Assembly (NCBI RefSeq): GCF_037042905.1
Contig: NC_087251.1
Coordinates: forward strand, 26,042,001-26,106,000
DNA from: Lytechinus pictus
Taxonomy: Eukaryota
Direction: 5' to 3'
DNA: 64,000 nt
A model generated the notes under the pieces. It had not been told where the DNA came from, ran no database searches, and worked only from the letters and a program-made list of their open reading frames with translations. Positions 6,630-31,928 of the stretch are shown piece by piece. The translations under genes and the position numbers were made by a program. The stretch's first letter is position 1. Every line of letters starts with the position of its first letter.

Positions 6630-12600
<5,971 letters not shown>

Positions 12601-12703
12601 GTTCAATCATCACCACATTAATAATAAATTAAATATAAATCCTGGAATAGACATAGAATGGACTTGATATGGCATGTAATGATGTATTTCAGGGATCGTC
12701 AGC

Positions 12704-14209: not shown

Positions 14210-15075
14210 GAGAGGGGCGCAAAATGTGGTCTTTTAATTAGGGGCGCTATATATTGATCATAAACTTGAGGGGTGCCATATTCACCCGAAAGTAAAGGAA
14301 CGATGAATTGCATGGTTTTGAAATAAGTGGCTCCAAATAAACTTAATATAGGAGGAACCAATTTGTTGTTAAACTCGGGGGCACCATGGACTTAAAATTA
14401 CGGGGCGCCAAAATGATCCGTAAGTATAAGGAGGCGCCAAAATGAAGGTGCTAAAATTGACCTAAAACTCGGGGCGCCAAATTTGTCTTAAACTATCGCC
14501 ATGTTGATTTTTAACTAGACGGGGCCAACATGATCCCAAATTAAGGAGGCGCCAAATTGTTTTCAAAATCTTAAAGGGGAGCCCAAATAGGGGGCGTCAA
14601 GTTGAACTTAAGTTAGGGGACGCCAATTCAATCTTAAACTCGAGAGGGTGTCAAAGTGGTCTTAAACTTAGGGGGAGCCAAATTGATCTTAAACCCGGGG
14701 GCGCCTTATTGATTTAAAGTAAAAGTGCGCCAAATTTGTTCTAAAATTGTGTGCGCCAAATTAAACTTAAGTAAGGGGGCATCAAATTTACCTCAAATCT
14801 GGGTTGCCAAATTTACCTTAAGTTAGGGACGCCAATTCGTCCTTAAACTCGGAGAGGGCGCCAAAATTTTCTTAAATTACCGGGGGCACATTATCAACCT
14901 TCACGTTATTTGCGCGATATTTATCTTGAATTTGGGACATTCAAATTTACCCATAAGTGAGTAGGTACCTTATTGCTTAAAATTAGGGGCCCTAATTTGA
15001 CCTAAAATAGGCGCCAAATTGACCTTAAGTCAAGGGGTGCCATTGTCTTAGAATTCGGGGCGCCAACTTATCCTA
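14210..15075. repeat. Degenerate minisatellite of about 28-30 bp (ggggcgccaaattgaccttaaact-like)
   Basis: GGCGCC-type core recurs about every 30 bp; preceded by a purine-rich tract at 14030-14200. Confidence 0.8.
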
Positions 15076-18202: not shown

Positions 18203-18465
18203 TCACAAAAACAATTTATAAATCAAGGCAGAAAGACAGATGACGAGCGGTGTAGCTTGAAGGTGTTGCGCTGATGAAAATCCATTGTACGCTACGATTC
18301 CTGTCAGCCACTCTGCAGATTTTTTCTGCGTTCGGCGTCGATCAGGATCCTCAAAATCAACGTAATGAAGTCCGAAGCGCTGACTGTAACCGGAAGTCCA
18401 CTCAAAGTTGTCCATGAGTGACCAAGCAAAATAGCCAACGAGGTTCACACCATCATACATTTGAG
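18203..18465 (-). CDS. GH1 paralogue B exon 5 (terminal)
   Basis: aag|[24 protein letters not shown]...LIYKLFL-stop. Confidence 0.93.
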
Positions 18466-21400
18466 CTTTATAGGGCAGAAAAGGATAAAGAGTGTTATTC
18501 AAATATAGCAAAATGATCAAGAAAATGAGTGTGTACGTGACTATAAAAAAAGAATATTGATGATACAACAGATTTAGTTTATATGCTAAAGAAAAGATCA
18601 GTTGACACAATCTACTTCTCCAAATCAACATACATGTAGAACATATCAGATCCTGAAGTGAAATACCGATGTCCCATATTGATGTATACTCCCTTTCTTT
18701 AGACAATGATTTCAAGTTCGGTGTTGACCTTTTGGTGTTTGTGTTAGGTCAATTTTAACATGATTATAACGCCAAACATAACATGAAGATGGTCCCGAAA
18801 AGTCACTCACTAGTTATTGAGAAGTCAATAATGTGATCTGGATCAGTTTTACAAAATCTGAATAAGTTTTAGAGCTGGGGGAAGCAATACAAATTTCAAC
18901 ACCAACACCAAGGCCAACACCGGACTTGAATTCCCCCAATGGATTCAAATAATTATTAAGGGTCAATCTAAAAATGAGACTGGAGGAACGCTTGATTTGG
19001 CCGATTTGATTACTTTCAGCTGGGTCCCTTATTTACACTTGGGAATTTTGAGAGTAGGGGAATGCCATGCAGAGACTTATTGGTTAAATAAGTGCATAAA
19101 GGGGGGTCAAATAAAGGGGTAGTTTTTAAAGACTGGTCAATGGTCAATCGCAGGGTCAAACGTATTTAGGATATGCTTTTTTCTAAAGCTTTTTTTTTTA
19201 AGACTAGCCAAACGTGTTTAGGGTATTTTTTTCCCCCAAAGCTTTTTCCCGGGGTCATATGGCGACAACTTGTTTAGGGGCCAAAATGTGTAAATAAAGC
19301 CCGCGAAAAACTTGTTTAGGTGGTTATTTTGCACACAGGGGATGTTTGAAAAATAATTTGGCTACGCGTGTGTACAGTAATACATTTGACTGCCCCCCCC
19401 CCCCCTCCGGGGGATAGAATGATGGTTGATATCGCCAACTTCTATTATAGTTGAGACTGCAATCAGTCGTAATCACCACAATACAGGACCATGGAGTAAA
19501 TAATTGAAATAAGTTATTTTACTTTCCACAAGCTCTACATTTGATGGTCAGAAATTTATGTGATCTCATATGAAATCGATATTATCTAATTGCCACTGAT
19601 GAATCACAAGTAGAACTCAATAAACCTACCTTTAAGGGCTTCATTAAGGTAAGCTTGGTAGAATGTGACCCTTGCATCGTCTTCAAGGTTGAACTCATCC
19701 GGGGTAGAAACACCATTCTCAGTGATGTAGATGTCGATATCATCATACTCATTCTTGACCCAGTTTAGGAGACCTCTCAAACCCCAAGGAACTGGTCGGA
19801 GCCATTCAGAAGCAGACGTCGGCCAATTTTCCGGTTGGTTTCGCTCCACATCCTGCAGAGGTAATACATTGTAATATAAATGAATTGACTTTCATGACGA
19901 AGTGATGTGCGCTGGGTTTCTAGCTGAATTCAGAACGTAGTAGGCCTATGATTTATGTTAAAATGATCCTTGAGTCACACTTTGGCCCGAATTCACAACA
20001 ACGGTGGTTTTTAAAACCATCGGTTGAACCTATGGTTTATGCAGATTGTCTGTATAATACAATCGTATCATCTGCATAAAGAAGTGTAAATAAATCTAAA
20101 CATATTCTCTTCGTCAGTAAAAACAAGTTCATTAACAGCTAAAGAAAGAGAATCAAGGCTTGGGTACCTCTGAGATAAAAAAAAAAAAAAGTCATTTAAA
20201 AACAACGAAAACAATTTAGGCGACAAATTTTCACCCTGTTTTACAACTATTTTTGTTTTGAAAAAAATCTGATTTAAATTGTCACATGAAACGTAGGACT
20301 TCGACTTTTTATAAATGTCTTTAATTACACGCAGCAATTTCCATTAATTCCATGTTGAATTAATTTCAACCATAATGATGATCTATCATCAAATCATTTT
20401 TTTATAATCAACAAAAGCTGTGTACACTCTTTTCCTTCTCTAAAAATACCAGTCAATAATGGCGTGTAATGAAAATTTTTTATCCATGGTGGAATAACTA
20501 CTCTTAAAATCAGTTTGTTCTTCACCGAGCAAGCTTTGAGAATAATGAAAATGGTTATTCAATCATTTAACACCGCTGTGAATAGCTTTCCAACGCAACT
20601 TAATAATGCGATCCCCCTATAAATGTCTACACCAGCGAGTCTCAACCGGTGGGCCGCGAATTAGCTCTCTCCGGTGGGCCGCGAAAAGTTCCAGAGGAAT
20701 AAAAAAAATAGGGAAAATGTATTATTTCATGTCCGAAAATGTTTTGTTTGATCGGTCTTTGTGTGTCAAACAAAGCTGGGGCACGCTTTGATCATGCAAT
20801 GCATGTTTCGATAAACATGCACATGATGGTTTCGATCTAACTTTGATGTGAACCTCTCAGGCCTCATGTGCATGCATATTTTGTTTGCAGTTAATTGTCG
20901 CCCTCTGCGAATGCAGTCAGTTCTCAAACTCTCTATTTCGAATGTGCTTGAGCTTTATATTCAAATTTCACGAAACATCAAATAGACGACCGTGTTTTAG
21001 AGCGAAAGGGTGAGGGAGGAAACACATCTACTGTTGGAAAGTCTCAGAAGGAAACTGTAAGAAAATATTACCCTGAATACATTAAGTTTGAATTCATCAT
21101 GACTGGCAGTCATGATGCTGTTTCAATTGCTTAATTACTTCCGATATATCAATCACCCTGTCCAATTCCTATGTTGAAAAATCTTTATACAGATATGTTA
21201 CAGAATCATTATTGCTTGATGTTACGTTACCACTACCTAAACTTTTGAAATGAACAAAAAAAATTGTCTATTCATGATGCATAGACTGTACTTTACAATG
21301 ATGACCAATCATAATGTTACGGTGTGAAAAAAGAGAAAATTTAAATAGGTTGAAATGTACAAAACTATGTATGGCTACTTTCACAGTCATAATCTAAAGC

Positions 21401-24400
21401 TTAAAGCATAACTCCACAACCTCCACGGTGATACCTTATACTTGGGCCTCTAAAATCAAACACAAAGTCATGAAGGAATTAATGTTTAATTATTGAATTT
21501 CATTTTTATGCTAGTTTTTCTGATTTCTTTGGTAAAAGTCCCTTCTAACATGGATCAATACAAGAAATCTACAAAACCTGACATCCGAATCTCACCTGGT
21601 CACCCTCATAATTGGGATCTCCTGATGTAACTTTATGTTTGCACACGGTCGTAGTGTAGCTGTTCAGCCCAAAGAAGTCTCCTGTACCCTTGATGTACTG
21701 TTTCTCCTCCTCAGTGAACTCTGGAAGACGAGACTCGGGAAGACCTTGCTCCTGACTCTTGTTACCGACCTGCCACTTCATCACATCTGGATAGTCACCG
21801 TTCTTCAATATTGGGTGCGCGAACCTTCAAAATGACATAAAAAGGTATCATTAAGTCTTCAAGGAGACAAAATTTTGAAATTGAATATTGAGAATGGTTT
21901 ATGAATTATTTACCAAGACTTAACTCTTTACGAATAATATTGATGTATCAAATAAGCTAGTGCTAAGACAAGCTTTGATTAGAAGAGGAAAGCGGAAGAT
22001 GGAGAGAATATTAAAAATCGTAAGATTAATAAAACAACCGTTTCCACATTCTAACAAACACTGATTGGATGTGTTTCATCGGGCAATTTACGCCTCAAGA
22101 TATTGCATCTCGTAATTACCACCGCACTCTAAAAAATATTGGGTAAAAATGCTCCATGAGGGTAATTGTGTATCCAACCAACATTGGGCATTTCTTTTGG
22201 GCATTTTTATTTATCCAGTGTGATGACAATTTTGCTAATTTTAAAATAATTGCTGCTTATTTTTTAACCTTATTGGACAATATGCTTCCCGCATTGGGTA
22301 AAACACTGCCCCAAATTGGTTTGATACGTAATTACCCTCGTGCTGGTAAAAATTTTGCCCAATATTTTTAACAGTGCGTGAATGCTAATTCATGAAGGCT
22401 ATAGCGCCATGTGATCCAAATAAAGGAATGTGTATACGGGTCTGAGGATAGAAACTCCACCTAATAGTTCAAACAGGCAAAATTGTGGACTGTGACTGGA
22501 TACATACCATCCTGCTGTGAACTGCATGTATCTTACAGCAGCTCCGATGTCCTCTTCATTCTCAGGGTCTTTTGGTTGTCCAAAGTCGGTACTAAGGGTG
22601 ATGGAGACCTTGCCACCATATTGAGAAAAGTAGTTATTTTTGTAGGTGTTGTATGCTTTTGCATGGGCCTTGATGATAGTATGGGCTGCACGGTATGGAG
22701 CGTATCCAGGGCTGACTATACCAGGGGCGAAGACGCCTATCCCATAACCGAGCCATGTCACCACATAGGGTTCGTTGAACGTAATCCAGATATTAACCTA
22801 ATAAAAAAGATAATTAGTTGGATTAATTATTAAGAGTATGATGAGCTGAAAATGTACAATTCCTGCCAAATGCATTATCAAGTCTATTTTATTTTTATTT
22901 GTTTTATCAAGAAGATTGAGATTTTCTACCGGCGCCCGCCTCAAGCATCCGGGGGTTCTCCAGATTGTTCCTCTGGAATCTCTCGATCTAGAAGCTCTCG
23001 GTGAGCACTCTTGGAAATCTCTGGAATTTCCCTAGAAGCTATCTGAGAGCTCTCTGTGAGCACGTTTGGAGATCTCTGGAATCTCTTTAGAAGCTCCCTG
23101 AGAGCTCTCTGTGAGAACTCTTGGAGATCTCTGGAATTTCTCTAGAAGCTCTCTGAGAGCTCTATAATAGGGGCTCTGTGTGAGCAATTTTTGAGATATC
23201 TGAAATTTCTCTAGAAGCTCTCTGAGAGCTCTGTGAGCACTCTTAGAGATCTCTGCAATCTTCCTAGAAGCTATCTGATATTTCTACAAGAGCTCTCTGT
23301 AAACTCTGTGAGTACTCTTGGAGATCTGTGGAATCCCTCTAGAAGCTCCCTACAATTCCTGCCAAATGCATTATCAAGTCTATTTTATTTTTATTTGTTT
23401 TATCAAGAAGATTGAGATTTTCTATACCGGCGCCAGCCTCAAGCATCCACGGTTTCTCCAGAGTGTTCCTCTACGAGCTCACTGGAAGCTTTCTAGAATC
23501 TCTCGATCTAGAAGCTCTGTGAGCACACTTGGAAATTTCTGGAACTTCCCTAGAAGCTCTCTGAGAGCTATCTGTGAGCACGTTTGGAGATCTCTGGAAT
23601 TTCCCTAGAAGCTCTCTGAGAGCTCTCTGTGAGCACGTTTGGAGGTCTCTGGAATCTCTCTAGAAGCTCTCTGAGAGTTCTCTGTGAGAACTCTTGGAGA
23701 TCTCTGGAATTTCTCTAGAAGCTCCCTGAGAGCTCTGGGAGCACTCTTGGGAATCTCTGGAATAGAGGCTCCCTGAGTGCTCTATAGGAACTATTTTTGA
23801 GCACTCTTGGAGATCTCTGAAATCTTCCTAGAAGCTATCTGATATTTCTACAAGACCTCTCTGTAAACTCCGTGTGACTACTCTTGGAGATCTGTGGAAT
23901 ATCTCTAGAAGCTCCCTTGGAGCTCTATGAGAGTTCTCTGGAAGATCTCCCCGGAATCTCACCGGAAGAATAAGTTACCACGACGTGAGACCGTGACGAA
24001 AGACAAGAATTTAATCAAATAAATGAATAAAATGGGGTAAATATGAAGAAGAGTAAAGAAGGAGGACATGGGTCACTGCTATATACGGTAGGCTGTTTTA
24101 AGAACATTATTTTAGCACAACTTAATAGGATTTAGTTGTGCTAAAATAATGTTCTAAATTAGTAGGGGAAAAATATAATTGAGGAAGGTGTTGGAAGGAG
24201 GAGAACCCTGTGATGTCGGCAACTTACATGGAGAGGGGTGAAAGATCCGGGAAGGGCACTCTGGAGAAGGCTTTATTGCCTGATTGTAACAATAATTAAT
24301 TTAAAAATTGACAGATGAAGATTATCGGTCAAAGAGTAAGAGGAAAATAGTACAGAAGGGTTTTAATTTTTTTTTTAAAGGAAAAATATAACATCTTTAT

Positions 24401-25681
24401 CACTGAAGCAGAGGCGGGGAAATGTGGCTAGCAATATATAAGTTGAACCGACTGATTTAGTCGGGATATAGCCTATATCTTCAGTCAGTGTTTTACCAAT
24501 TTTATGAGGCCTATAAATTCAGAGCCTGATAAATCTCGACATGAACTTTATAGGCCTATAATATGTGGCGTAGTGGCACAAATGCATTTCTCCTGATCAA
24601 ACCACGGATATTTTTTTTTACTTTGACCAGCGTTTCTCTCCCTTCTATCGAATTCAATTACACTCCCTATATTCCTTCCACTTAATTACTTTTTATTTCT
24701 TATTTTTTATCACTTCTACAAAACCATGGGCGGATGCCCACAATGCTCCATTTCTTATGTCATGTGTGGAGTGCCGCCTTGTTTCTTATGAATATATTTT
24801 TAAATTCTGGTATTTTACTTTGGGAAAAACTATTTTAGCTCTGGTGACATTGCTTCTTTTTGTGGCGTACTTGCGTTTGGAGGTAGAGCTCTCTTTATAG
24901 TGCAACATTATAGAGAATTTATTTCTGTCATATCAAAACAACCAGATGTTAAAGCAAATTTGATAAAACATATTACGTTATAATCGATTGTCTATCTACT
25001 GAAGCTTCTTGGTATTTTGTGGGGGGGGGGGTAGGAACAAAGTTTTGTTTTTCTTTCTATCACAGCCCTCGTATATAATATTCTTACCTTAGAAGCATAT
25101 TCAGCGAAGCACAAATTGGCATAGTCGTTGAACAAGTCGGCCAGAGTGTCATTCTCCCATCCACCGTAATCATCCTGGAGTACCTGAGGAAGGTCCCAGT
25201 GGTAGAGGGTGACCACGGGTTCGATGTCGTTGGCAATGAGCTCGTCGATCAGATCGGTATAGTAATCTAAGCCAGCCTGGTTAATGCCGCCAGCAAGCGT
25301 GCCCTGGGGCAAGATCCTTGGCCACGAGATGGAGAAGCGGTAATGGGTCAGTCCGATGGCTTTAACCAGCTGGACGTCTTCGGTGTACTTATGGTAACTG
25401 TCGCAGGCGACGTCGCCGGTTTGGTTATTATAGATCCGGCCTTCGTGAGAGAAGGTATCCCAGATGCTCTCGCCTTTGCCGTCCTCGTTCCAACCTCCTT
25501 CGACCTGATAGGCGGAGGTGGCCGAACCCCAGGCAAAGCCATCCGGAAACTGCCCAGAGATTAAAGTGTCGCGTTCAGGATCGTCGAAGACATCAGGGTA
25601 CGAGAACTCCCCGCTGGTTAGATGCAGATATACTGTCAATATGATGAAAACGCTATTGATTTCTTTCTTATGGACAGCCAT
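18203..25681 (-). CDS. GH1 beta-glucosidase, lactase-phlorizin hydrolase-like, single domain; paralogue B (5 exons, about 532 aa)
   Basis: Exons 25681-25088, 22797-22508, 21824-21596, 19852-19630 and 18465-18203 join in frame (1599 nt). Intron positions and phases match paralogue A, and all GH1 motifs are intact. Confidence 0.95.
18711..18930. mobile_element. MITE
   Basis: TIR ttcaagttcggtgttgacctt ... aaggccaacaccggacttgaa. Confidence 0.65.
19630..19852 (-). CDS. GH1 paralogue B exon 4
   Basis: cag|[11 protein letters not shown]...YITENG...NEALK-G|gtaggt. Confidence 0.92.
20061..20570 (-). mobile_element. Degenerate non-LTR retrotransposon reverse-transcriptase fragment
   Basis: Frameshifted motifs [42 protein letters not shown] and LLYADDT. 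Confidence 0.85.
21596..21824 (-). CDS. GH1 paralogue B exon 3
   Basis: aag|[13 protein letters not shown]...YEGDQ|gtgaga. Confidence 0.92.
22125..22376. mobile_element. CACTA/EnSpm-like MITE
   Basis: Ends CACTCTAAAAAATATTGGG ... CCCAATATTTTTAACAGTG with a 2-bp duplication CG on both sides. Confidence 0.75.
22508..22797 (-). CDS. GH1 paralogue B exon 2
   Basis: tag|[15 protein letters not shown]...MQFTAG-TG|gtatgt. Confidence 0.93.
22856..23965. repeat. Tandem array of about 56 bp with a higher-order duplication of about 496 bp
   Basis: Unit ctctgtgagcactcttggagatctctggaatttctctagaagctctctgagagct. The unique lead-in acaattcctgccaaatgcattatcaag occurs at both 22856 and 23352. Confidence 0.9.
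25088..25681 (-). CDS. GH1 paralogue B exon 1
   Basis: MAVHKKEIN...FAEYASK|gtaaga. Confidence 0.93.
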
Positions 25682-25820
25682 GATTATAAGACGAAATTGA
25701 CCACAAATCTGTTAAAGCATATATATGCCCTATGGTGAAATATGCCCCGAGCGGACTTAGTATTGGATATGAATGTCTTTCAGAGATCTTTGGACTTTTG
25801 TAACTCTTGGGGTTGCAAAT

Positions 25821-26188: not shown

Positions 26189-27900
26189 CCAGTGGCGTAA
26201 TGAGCCAAAAAAATTTGAGGGTGCTCGATGCGGTGTATGACGTAAAATCAATAAGTTGCGAGCGTGCGAAGCGAGTGAGCAAAAATTTCAACATTTTTAT
26301 TACAAAATCCAAAGTTTGTGATAGATTTTGACATGACGTTTGGAAAATAATAGACCTATATTTCACCCTTATCCCTATCCTTTTCTCTTTTTTTGGTCGT
26401 AAAAAATTGGGGGGGGGGGCAAAACGCCGATGTCCTAACAGTAATTTCTTAGCTTTATTCTTATCAAACAACATAAAAAAGTGTAATAATCTCATAAGCC
26501 CTATTTAAATAGTGCGAGCGCGAAGCGCGAGCTGAAAAATTTTGACATTCCGGTCCAAAAAAATCTAAGCACTTTTTGTAATCATTATCGGTATAGCTAG
26601 GTATAAAACTAAACAATTTATGCGAGCGCGAAGCGCGAGCGGAAAAATTGAGATTTCAGACCTAAGAAAGGGACACTCTATTCATGTTTTGTAAATCATG
26701 AAAAAAGATGGGAAATTTGGTATTTTCCTACATTGCGAGTAGAAAATTTTTGATATTCTGATCTGAAACTGGATAATTTTAGCACGTTTTTTGAATAAAG
26801 ATCAAGCTGCGTATCTTAATAAACATGTGCGCGCGTGTTTTATAGTTAGGCAGAATCTGGGCATTCTAAATACATTTCATTTTTTTTTATGAAAATCAAT
26901 AATGCGAGCGCGAAGCGCGAGCGGAAAATACTTGATATTCCGGTTTGGAAAGGGTGAATTTAAGCACCATCTAAAGCACTGTGTAGGGAAATTGTGAAGT
27001 GGATATGGATAGCACTTAATAAATGATGCGAGTGCGAAGCGCGAGCTGATATTTTTTTTACTATTTTGACCTGAGACCTGGACATTCTATAGGCCTAAGG
27101 ACATTTTGTCATCATATGAAAATGATGACTATCCTATTTCTCTTCCTAAGCGCGAAATGAAACTTGTCGATATTCCTTTCTGAAAAGGGGACAATTTTGT
27201 TATTAGGAATTCATGAAAATTTTATCTATCGTATTTATTAATGTTATAAGCATAATGAGTGAGTGAAATTTGTTGACATTGAGGCCTGAAAACTGGATAT
27301 TTTAAGCACCTTTGTAATCATGAATAAGATTTATGAGTTGATATATTTTCAACAATAATGCTAGCGCAAATCGCGAGACGAAATTCTTGATAAACTGTCA
27401 TAAAAGGGGGATTTTAAGTAATTTGTTATAGAATTAATATATAAAGAATCTTATGGAATAAACAAAGACAACATGTAGGCCTACTTGGCAAATCAAATCA
27501 TGCGAGCGCACAGCGCAAAAAGCTGCAAATTATATATACACAATAAACAGACATTTTACAGAGCACTTAAAAAAAATCAATGTGTAAATTAAAGAAAATA
27601 ATGAAAGCTCGATGTCCGAGCTAAAATATGCATTGTAAATTTTAAAAACTGATATTTAAGCTACATATCAGCCTATTGAGCAAGATATGTATTTCATCGA
27701 ACAGGCTATGCGAGCGCAAAGCGCGAGCAAAAATTTAATATAATGACATGAAATATATTTTCAAATCATTTTCCAAGTCTTCCCTTAACCTCATTTTATT
27801 TACTCGTCTCCCTCTTATTTTTCCTCTTTTTTCCCTCTTTTTCCCCTTCTTTTTCTTTTTTCTCTCTTTCCCCCTTTTTTCCATTTTTGTTTTGCTATAC
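26189..27900 (+). repeat. Degenerate array carrying TGCGAGCGCGAAGCGCGAGC motifs
   Basis: Motif at about 26257, 26514, 26621, 26903, 27027, 27360, 27501 and 27709; begins with cagtggcgtaatgagccaaaa. Related pieces lie near 750, 1145, 2390, 33860 and 35860-35960. Confidence 0.7.
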
Positions 27901-28971
27901 GCCAATAGGAGGGGGGGCCAAAAGGTAAGGTCATCTCCTCCAAAATACTTGTATTATTTCGATTTTTAATGATGTATTTCTTTCCATCATAAAATACCAA
28001 AAATAGTAGGGGGACAATTGATATTGTGTCCCCCTTACTATTTTGGGTAGGGGGACGCGTCCCCCTGTCCCCCCTGGGATTTCCGCCCATGGGTGTATGA
28101 AGAGCAAATAAAAAAGATAATGAAATGCATCTGCTCTTTCTAGTCTAAACGAAGGAGTAAAAGGAGTAGTTTTCTTGTTATGAAGGGACAAAGTAAACTG
28201 ATGAAACTTTAAGTGCCCTATTCTTTAGACCCATCTTTCTGTTCTGAGTCCTCTCTAATAGGTCCTCTGGGAAAGAGAAAGAATCATATTCCATATAGTT
28301 TTTTTTTATATCATAGAGCAGAAGCCTATAAAAAACTAGCAAAGTGAAAAGGTTGTCTGGTCGGCAAGATAATCAAGGGTAATCCTAAAGAAAAATAAAG
28401 TTAAAAAAAATATAGTTGGAATCATGTCTCTTTGGGGATCACCCCCTTTCAGTCATCACTTTTAACCCAAATGGTGTGTCTTTTTCTAAGAATAATATAT
28501 GTAGAGGTTGAATAATAGTTATTTGATGTTAGCACTATAGGGTTTACATGTACGTAATGCCATAAATTCAATAATAATAAAGTTTGTCTTTCAGTCTTTC
28601 GTAAAACCTAGTACGAGGAGTTGATATGGTTGGTTTGTTACTGGTCAGAGTCAATCCCTGATAGCGTAAGGATTGTTCTGTGATCGTCCTAAATGCAATT
28701 CGGGACCCTAATCTCAGTAGAAGGTGGACAACAGGGGCTGCAACAGTATACTCTGAAAGGTGGTGGGCAAGACGAATCCCCTCCTCCAGATAGAGTTATA
28801 CATCACAGGGGTAACACGATCAATACCTTTCTTTTATGTTCTTTTCCTTCTATCTTTCCTTTTCATCCTCTTTTTCTTCCTTCCCTTCATTTTTTCTACT
28901 ATATAATACTTGAGAAAAAAATTATAATAACAGGATCGGTCGCCGCCCTGTCACCTCTTGTAGCACCGCCC

Positions 28972-30216
28972 CACAGTGGGCCGGGGCGAAACAAAAGTGC
29001 GCCAAAAGTCATTTTGGGCAATTTCAGTTTTTTTATTTTTGTCAAGCCCAGCTGAAAGACAACACTTTGAAGAATACTTCAGCAAAATATTTCATTCTGG
29101 AATTTGCATGAAGGTTGTTAATTTCCTACCTCAAATCGTAAAATGTCACATTTTGCGAAATGCCGCGTATATGACAACTTAGTTAAAAAACGAGTCATTT
29201 CACAGGAGGTTTTTCATGTAGGAATCTGAAATGGCACCCACATAATTCTGATATATTCTTTTTTTTTCGTGTGAAAGGGTTCAAAGTAGATAAAAGACAC
29301 ATTTCAGGAGGTTTATAGGATAATCATTCCTCGAAATAGGCTGATAATCCATGTTTTTTGCAATTACATTAGAAACGTTTGGATTTCCGTGGATTTCAGT
29401 TTAGATTCTATCATCATTATTTTGCCAGATGTCTAAGCTTTAAGTCGATACCAAATTTAGCTGCCCGATTTTGTCCGTTTTCATGTTAGAGCTGATTTTA
29501 CTTGACACAACACCCCCAAAACATGTTAAAAACGGTCATTTTTATACCGCGCAGTCATCGCATGCAGCGCACAGTGTGGGGTGTACATTGCCGTTTATTT
29601 GTGCATGGCGAGGACGATTCCCCTTCCATTCCATGAAAATTACATGAATTCCGGGCATAATGCAAACAAAATAAAGGTTGATAACGCATAAGGGCTACCC
29701 GCCCCTCTTCCAGAGATAAAAGTTACTTGTAGAATAATTTCAGCAAAAAACCCTCCTCATAGTAAAACATTTGTGGTGTTATATACTCTGCGTTTTACCC
29801 AAGTCTACACCGCTTGATAAAGACCGGTTAGTAATATTTTTCAAATTATTAATTTTCTTTTTAATCTAATGATCATTTTGATGCCATACAATTATTTTCA
29901 GGATCTCATACACACTTTTAAGGCATGTGAGAAGCATAAACCAACATTCACTCTGGTCAAATCTTAAAGTAACACATAACACAAAGTTTATTTTTTATAC
30001 TGCACATTGTTTAGCGTAATTTGTATTTTCACAGATAGGTTTTAAGTAGCCAATCATAATTTGGTATCAAAGTGACGTCATATCGGCTTTAAATTATAAT
30101 TATGTTCAGTCGATTCTACGCCCAAAATTACCCTGAATCAACATGTTAAAGTAAAAACATAACACGGAATATTATAATTATTGTGGCGCACTTTCAACTC
30201 ATTCTGGCCCACTGTG
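28972..30216. mobile_element. Non-autonomous Transib/RAG-transposon-like element
   Basis: Both ends read CACAGTGGGCC-N11-AAAGTGCGCCA; perfect 5-bp duplication CGCCC at 28967-28971 and 30217-30221; no transposase ORF. Confidence 0.85.
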
Positions 30217-31928
30217 CGCCCCTGATGGATTCTCGGAAGAGGTTTGAATGGTACCATGGCATAAACACCATGGACTATGCATACTTTTGTAAATAATAAT
30301 GCTTATTTTATCCCGTACACTATAGAAAAATCAAATTAAATGAAAAGTAGGCTTACATATACTTTTTATGACGAAATCAGGGCGAAGGGGTAGTATATTC
30401 AGAGTGTATGCATTTTGAAATAGAATATTTGGTGCATTATTTTAGGGAAAACTTGAACAAATACATGTTTAGGGTTTCTGAATTATAAAGATGATTAGGG
30501 TCCATTTTGAAAGCCAGTGGGTGTCCAATTCGTGACAGCCCCCCCACACACACACACACACTCCGTCATAACGTATACAATCGGAACCAAACAAACCAAG
30601 AACTTGAAAACGGGTCTAAGAAGAATGGAAACCATAAAGCATGCGCAATATTGGAAACATTAATATGTACACAAAAGGGCGTTGGCGTTATAAGTAAAAT
30701 ATTGACGGGTCAGAACATGGCGAATGGGTGCATTCACTTATTTTCTTTACAGCCCCTTTACTCTGCCGACTGTCTAGTAATTATATTTAGTGAATTTAAA
30801 TAAATAGGGAGGGTGGGCTTTTATAAGCACGAGAGCCTAGCTGACACTGCTCGTCGGACCTTCATTTACATAATTTCAATGTATAACCAAATATACTTCA
30901 CTTGACACTAAAATGTACTTTCACGATATTGTAAAGTACTTGATTGGTATACATAATTAAGCGTTTTTGTTTTCGTTTTTTTTATAGATTTTTCAGTTTA
31001 GTTACTGTTCAATTCATAGTGCTCTTTAATTGTTTATAAAATAATTATTTTACACACCCTTTAAAAAAAAAAATCTCGAACAGAAAGATATGACATACTT
31101 TTCTTCTTATTTTAACGTTACTTGTTCTTAAGAAATATTCATGATGTACTTTCGACTTAGTTGAAGAATATTCTAACTCCATTCAACAATTGAAATAATT
31201 TCTTACTCTCGTGCAATATCTTAACTTGAATTAAAATTACTAAATTGAAGCAAGTCATAAAATTAATATTATACTTCAAAAATCAAGCAATATCAAATAC
31301 ACTTAATTTGTTAAATTAGTAAGACTTTATTATGTAACAATCTTTCTTTCCTTCCATGGTTTAACGGAAATATTTCGTTTAAAAAGTGAAATTTACATAA
31401 AAAGGCAAGGGAAATTACAATCGGTGTCCACATAATTCATATTTCCCCCTTTTCCTGTCGTTTATCGGTCGTAGATTATTTTAGGGGCAACTACCCCCCA
31501 AGACCCCTCCCCCACCCATTGTGTATGTCAGCTGGTTTTCGGGAAACGTTGTTCCCTGTGAATTTGTTGCCCCGCAACGTTCAGTGCTTGAATTATGTCA
31601 TGGAAATCGGTAGACTTTAAACCGTCAAATTGTGATAAGTGGTACTTATTATTCCTGATTGCTAAGACAGCATGTTCGTGAGCATTCATGTAATAGGTCC
31701 GATGCCCTCTCCGATAGAACATGTTGAGCTAGGGTAAATGCCATTAATGCCTTACCAAAGGGCACTTGCGCACTGATGAAACAAAATAATCGAGACCCTC
31801 TCTCTTCCAATATTGAACTTTTTAGAGAGGGGAGTGTTTACCTTTTCTATCGAAAAGCTATCATTCCAGGATGAAAGAGGTTGTGCCTTTTCGTTGTGAG
31901 GGCAATACTCTAAAAACAAAATTATGTG

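Follow-up and report, generated by a model that had tools for sequence, protein, structure and literature searches.

The 1245-bp segment at 28972-30216 is very probably a copy of a high-copy, non-autonomous Transib family that is related to Transib-N1_SP of the purple sea urchin and was moved in trans. It lies without genes of its own in the window, by which we mean the whole 64,000-nucleotide stretch of DNA that was analysed. A perfect 5-bp duplication, CGCCC, flanks it at 28967-28971 on the left and at 30217-30221 on the right. Each terminus is built of a first 11-base block, CACAGTGGGCC, followed by 11 variable bases and a second 11-base block, AAAGTGCGCCA, and the two termini are inverted relative to each other. 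In the left terminal inverted repeat (28972-29007, plus strand), block 1 occupies 28972-28982 and block 2 occupies 28994-29004, with the 11-base spacer between them and an A-run that extends to 29007. In the right terminal inverted repeat (30181-30216, minus strand), block 1 is read from 30216 to 30206 and block 2 from 30194 to 30184, again with a spacer of 11 bases. Coordinates and letters were checked in the window, those of the right-hand duplication included, and they agree with the preliminary description, which had reported a 1245-bp element with bipartite ends, an 11-base gap and CGCCC flanks.

The two termini are identical in both 11-base blocks, whereas their spacers agree at only 3 of 11 positions; over the first 36 bases, the termini agree at 27. 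When up to three mismatches are allowed, the two-block pattern is found at exactly two sites in the window, and these are the element termini. No two-block match was obtained in any of 100 dinucleotide shuffles. Among the pairs of CACWRTG and CAYWGTG that lie less than 8 kb apart in the window, the element is the sole one with a perfect 5-bp duplication. The heptamer CACAGTG alone occurs 10 times when both strands of the window are counted, and 8 of these occurrences are away from the element termini. Positions 8-11 read GGCC in both termini, and positions 34 and 35 are both A in the left terminus and C and A, respectively, in the right one. The target 15-mer is 67% GC, a level that is reached by 4.2% of the 15-mers in the window. 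Past the ends, the left and right subterminal regions are unrelated (z -0.6), and no second copy of the element was found in the window, either by blastn or by pattern. We also considered whether the target might itself be a terminus of some small, older element with inverted repeats and rejected this, since the arms match at only 10 of 14 positions and no other copy is present in the window. Elsewhere in the window, a degenerate 25-26-bp tandem array (14588-14876) includes, at 14722, an exact copy of the second end block that is not accompanied by the heptamer block; this is probably a coincidence.

The element encodes nothing. Its longest stop-free frame is 69 codons. Frames with a length of at least 35 codons overlap it 25 times, and none gave a Pfam match above the cut-off; two weak matches fell below it, with E values of 0.05 and 0.13. 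Rfam returned no matches in the window.

The depth over the element relative to its flanks was assessed with contigs of four public runs (representing at most three samples), which were aligned to 27800-31400. In each of the four runs, every one of the 11 bins that cover the element reaches a summed contig depth of 3,500-51,000. In the 15 flanking bins (28163-28888 and 30341-31400) this depth is 0-110, and in the bin with the right boundary it is 56-196. Single flank contigs have depths of 17-107, which places the excess over the element at roughly hundreds-fold, with the caveat that summed depth is not equivalent to copy number. One 588-base contig from run X1 aligns up to 30218, two bases beyond the right end, and then stops. 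Joints inside the element reveal internally deleted forms, such as one from 28991 to 29987 that is present in two runs. Since the pile-up covers the whole element, including the full length of the non-coding interior (29008-30180), and drops at the termini, the element belongs to a dispersed, multi-copy family. The depth step is present at both ends in all four runs, although the loose ends listed include no individual flanks at the termini of the element. A separate short repeat at about 27975-28092 shows a summed depth of 55,000-258,000 (bin 27921-28041), far above that of the Transib copy. Loose ends are numerous in it at 27975-27981 and at 28091-28092, and it has an internal 19-base inverted repeat at 27995-28049. 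It is probably a very abundant miniature element.

Divergence was read from the 32 longest matches listed. Among these are 27 element pieces, whose divergence from the window copy is 6-12% of bases, and 5 flank pieces, which differ from the window at 5-8%; long contig pieces favour diverged copies. The recent movement that the preliminary description had thought probable is not supported: the divergence of the element pieces speaks against it, but that of the flank pieces and the bias of long pieces weaken this argument. Five element sites differ from the window copy in nearly all contigs. The runs found share just 5-12% of the words (9 of 16 runs). This low word sharing, together with the 5-8% divergence of the flanks, indicates that the runs come from a divergent relative and are therefore unable to date the window copy. 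A clean empty site, in which 28971 would be joined to about 30222, was not found among the matches listed (15 joints and 12 rows), and contigs cannot prove its absence. One contig from run X6 joins 28742 to 30504 with two letters between, and it lacks the element along with about 230 and 290 flanking bases. It represents a deletion allele or else a join derived from a repeat, and not a clean empty site.

Related ends were found in metagenome contigs, in which an exact-pattern scan identified two loci, L001 and L002, with one end each. Both of these ends carry the two blocks, separated by an 11-base spacer of different sequence, and their flanks end in CGGCC and CGACG. Past the end, L001 and L002 are 84% alike (290/345). 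By blastn, L002 is colinear with element positions 1-187 (62%, E 3e-8) and 375-527 (65%, E 8e-11). Beyond the end repeat, the two loci show modest similarity to the left side of the element (z 3.4 and 3.7) and no similarity to its right side. No matches to the end pattern were observed in viral contigs and prokaryote genomes, and no autonomous partner with such ends was found there. A second copy with both ends and a duplication of its own was not found in the window, and L001 and L002 are single-ended. L001 also contains palindromic repeated units at about 420-1240, in or beside the related Transib end, that neither L002 nor the window element has.

Transib elements are defined by GC-rich 5-bp duplications and RSS-like ends (PMC1131882). 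According to the same source, these ends start with CAC, carry a heptamer resembling CACAATG or CACAGTG, and have A at about positions 34-35, with position 34 being 85% conserved. Here, we observed a 5-bp duplication (at one insertion, L001 and L002 being single-ended), a GC-rich target in an AT-rich genome, with relatives beside GC-rich flanks, inverted repeats that start with CAC and contain the heptamer and A at about 34-35, and, by the depth step at both ends, dispersed multiple copies. Transib-N1_SP (TransibN1_SP) is a non-autonomous Transib from the purple sea urchin (Kapitonov and Jurka 2005, Fig. S4g, PMC1131882). As given there, it has perfect 36-bp end repeats and copies of 558-992 bp, with CGNCG on the left of 10 of 11 copies and a perfect 5-bp duplication at 8 of the 11. 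By hand count, the termini of the element match the Transib-N1_SP end at 32 of 36 positions on the left and 27 of 36 on the right. Both 11-base blocks are the same, as are the 11-base length of the spacer, the A-run at positions 33-36 (at the left end of the element), the CG-rich 5-bp duplication and the size of about 1 kb. In contrast, the spacers of the element are unlike between its ends, whereas the published repeats are perfect; the element is longer, at 1245 bp versus 558-992 bp; and its CGCCC duplication ends in C and not in G, as opposed to the mostly CGNCG of Transib-N1_SP. With the two compared by their ends alone, the element is filed as a putative relative of Transib-N1_SP and is not assigned to the same family.

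Membership of the superfamily and a CG-rich 5-bp duplication are also shared with Transib1_SP, an autonomous sea-urchin element of 4132 bp with a CGGCG duplication (PMC1131882). Transib1_SP differs in that it encodes a 676-aa transposase, and a partnership between such an element and the one described here may be supposed. When literature main texts were searched for the 11-base end motif, 14 papers matched, and the 13 that were listed were all unrelated by title. The preliminary description had proposed a non-autonomous Transib element. Because the element shares both blocks of the published Transib-N1_SP and is multi-copy, this assignment is now firmer than it was when first argued.

One of the original arguments for Transib did not survive, namely that the symmetric spacers favour it over a RAG-type transposon. 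Symmetry alone does not separate the two, since the ends of BbeRAGL-B are almost symmetric (PMC10462144), those of a pearl-oyster RAGL are symmetric (PMC8355894), and some Transibs are asymmetric (PMC1131882). Among Transibs, Subgroup I elements are described as all asymmetric and Subgroup II elements as mixed (PMC9435367), so the equal spacing seen here would fit Subgroup II. It is unlikely that the element was moved by a RAG1L/RAG2L transposase, of the kind found in RAGL and TransibSU elements, and not by a single-gene Transib enzyme. Such an origin would account for the CAC-starting heptamer and the 5-bp duplication, which RAGL, ProtoRAG and TransibSU elements have as well, but those elements possess genes for RAG1L and RAG2L as well as an A-rich region behind the heptamer, and the element has neither. 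In RAGL ends, the A-rich region (TR2) typically comes right after the heptamer (PMC7204232, PMC10462144), the protostome RAGL consensus has AAA at positions 8-10 (PMC7204232), and the ends of bat-star TransibSU are likewise A-rich after the heptamer (PMC4411706), whereas both ends of the element have GGCC in this place. Moreover, a search of the supplement text of PMC4411706, PMC7204232, PMC10629977 and PMC9435367 did not find the end motifs of the element. For an echinoid RAG-like enzyme, no terminal repeats are reported in the available text of PMC10462144 and PMC9885083. What do separate a Transib from a RAG-like origin, as judged from the letters of the ends, are the identity with Transib-N1_SP and the missing A-rich region.

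Taken together, all origins other than a Transib or a RAG1L/RAG2L enzyme are highly unlikely. It is barely plausible that the element comes from a different group with CAC ends, whether of the Chapaev type or unclassified, and that elements with Transib-N1_SP-like ends have been misfiled. The assignment of non-autonomous families is based on ends and duplication length alone, which leaves room for such an error, but the duplication here is exactly 5 bp and GC-rich. Chapaev duplications, by comparison, are 3-4 bp. Those of hAT elements are 8 bp, and most Transib-N1_SP copies have the perfect 5-bp form (PMC1131882). Chapaev groups have been put within a broad Transib superfamily (PMC4411706), which speaks for the misfiled group. 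That the arrangement arose by chance, or that the element is a functional recombination cassette of the host instead of a transposon, has a probability close to nil. The left end does read as a heptamer followed by 12 bases and a 6/9 nonamer, as such a cassette might, but this idea is largely refuted by the Transib-N1_SP ends, by a depth profile that shows a dispersed repeat with its limits at the ends, and by the absence of the end pattern from all shuffles; the nonamer match, moreover, is not conserved.

The likeness to recombination signals was followed at both ends and in the relatives. At a spacer of 12, the left terminus gives ACAAAAGTG, which matches the nonamer at 6/9, and the right terminus scores 3/9; the two related metagenome ends score 5/9 and 4/9. 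At a spacer of 23, the scores are 6/9 for the left terminus and 4/9 for the right. Of all window positions, 1.6% score at least 6/9. Given two ends and several spacers to pick from, the left-end match is weak and unremarkable, and the conserved second block overlaps the supposed nonamer in part only. Because the match is conserved neither at the right end nor in the relatives, the reading of the left end as a meaningful 12-RSS is not supported. The heptamer, the 12-base gap and the 6/9 match that had been pointed out are indeed present. The ends do not form a 12/23 pair, with a nonamer at 12 on one end and at 23 on the other. The element thus has in common with V(D)J 12/23 RSSs the exact heptamer CACAGTG at both ends, and it differs from them in this missing pair, in a nonamer likeness that is 6/9 at one end and 3/9 at the other, and in a conserved second block that is another sequence at equal spacing on both ends. 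The internal CACAGTG that had also been singled out (29570-29576, plus strand) does exist, but both conserved blocks are missing from it, and no role for it is supported. The expectation for this heptamer within the element is 0.09, and no end that would pair with it and give a 5-bp duplication was found in the window. It is probably there by chance.

For a non-autonomous Transib copy moved in trans, the transposase would be supplied by an autonomous Transib elsewhere, perhaps of the Transib1_SP kind. HzTransib, RAG and BbeRAGL cut by nicking and hairpin formation and give 5-bp duplications (PMC10462144). By analogy, the enzyme would bind both ends and excise the element by nick and hairpin. 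Insertion at a CG-rich site, with the two strands joined 5 bases apart, and subsequent repair would then generate the CGCCC duplication. The two blocks lie 22 bases apart from start to start, or about two helical turns. Their conservation suggests that they are probably transposase contact sites, since the spacer keeps its length alone across the four ends seen here and in Transib-N1_SP; the spacer itself appears to be free in sequence and fixed in length.

It was published as early as 2005 that Transib ends resemble V(D)J signals, these sea-urchin end blocks included, and the element itself matters little, being another example of a kind described in that year. Its small added value lies in the constancy of the blocks and of the spacer length across four ends and Transib-N1_SP, against a spacer sequence that varies. 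This shows where a deuterostome Transib transposase probably makes contact and provides a ready design for substrates. The importance of the element would rise only if a RAG1L/RAG2L pair proved to be what mobilises it. It is improbable that the family owes its mobility to a RAG1L/RAG2L transposase that is still active in a sea urchin. If it were so, hundreds of elements with exact heptamers would be natural substrates of an echinoid RAG-like enzyme, and the way in which such an enzyme reads symmetric signals would be evident from their two-block ends.

The surrounding DNA is animal-like, with a GC content of about 37% across the window, and 7 of the 39 long frames in the window match PF00232. 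The sequence of the element's ends points to a sea urchin as the most likely host. Two glycoside hydrolase family 1 genes, which contain introns and lie in tandem, occupy the minus strand of the window (6630-12606 and 18203-25711); they have signal-peptide-like starts and exons that are 79-88% identical in DNA. The element sits upstream of the nearer gene, about 3.3 kb from its likely start codon, and nothing was found in the window that ties the two together. Two related tandem arrays with units of 161-192 bp are present at 1331-2137 and 10777-11429, and a compound 55-bp/11-bp tandem array lies within the second hydrolase gene at 22855-23949.
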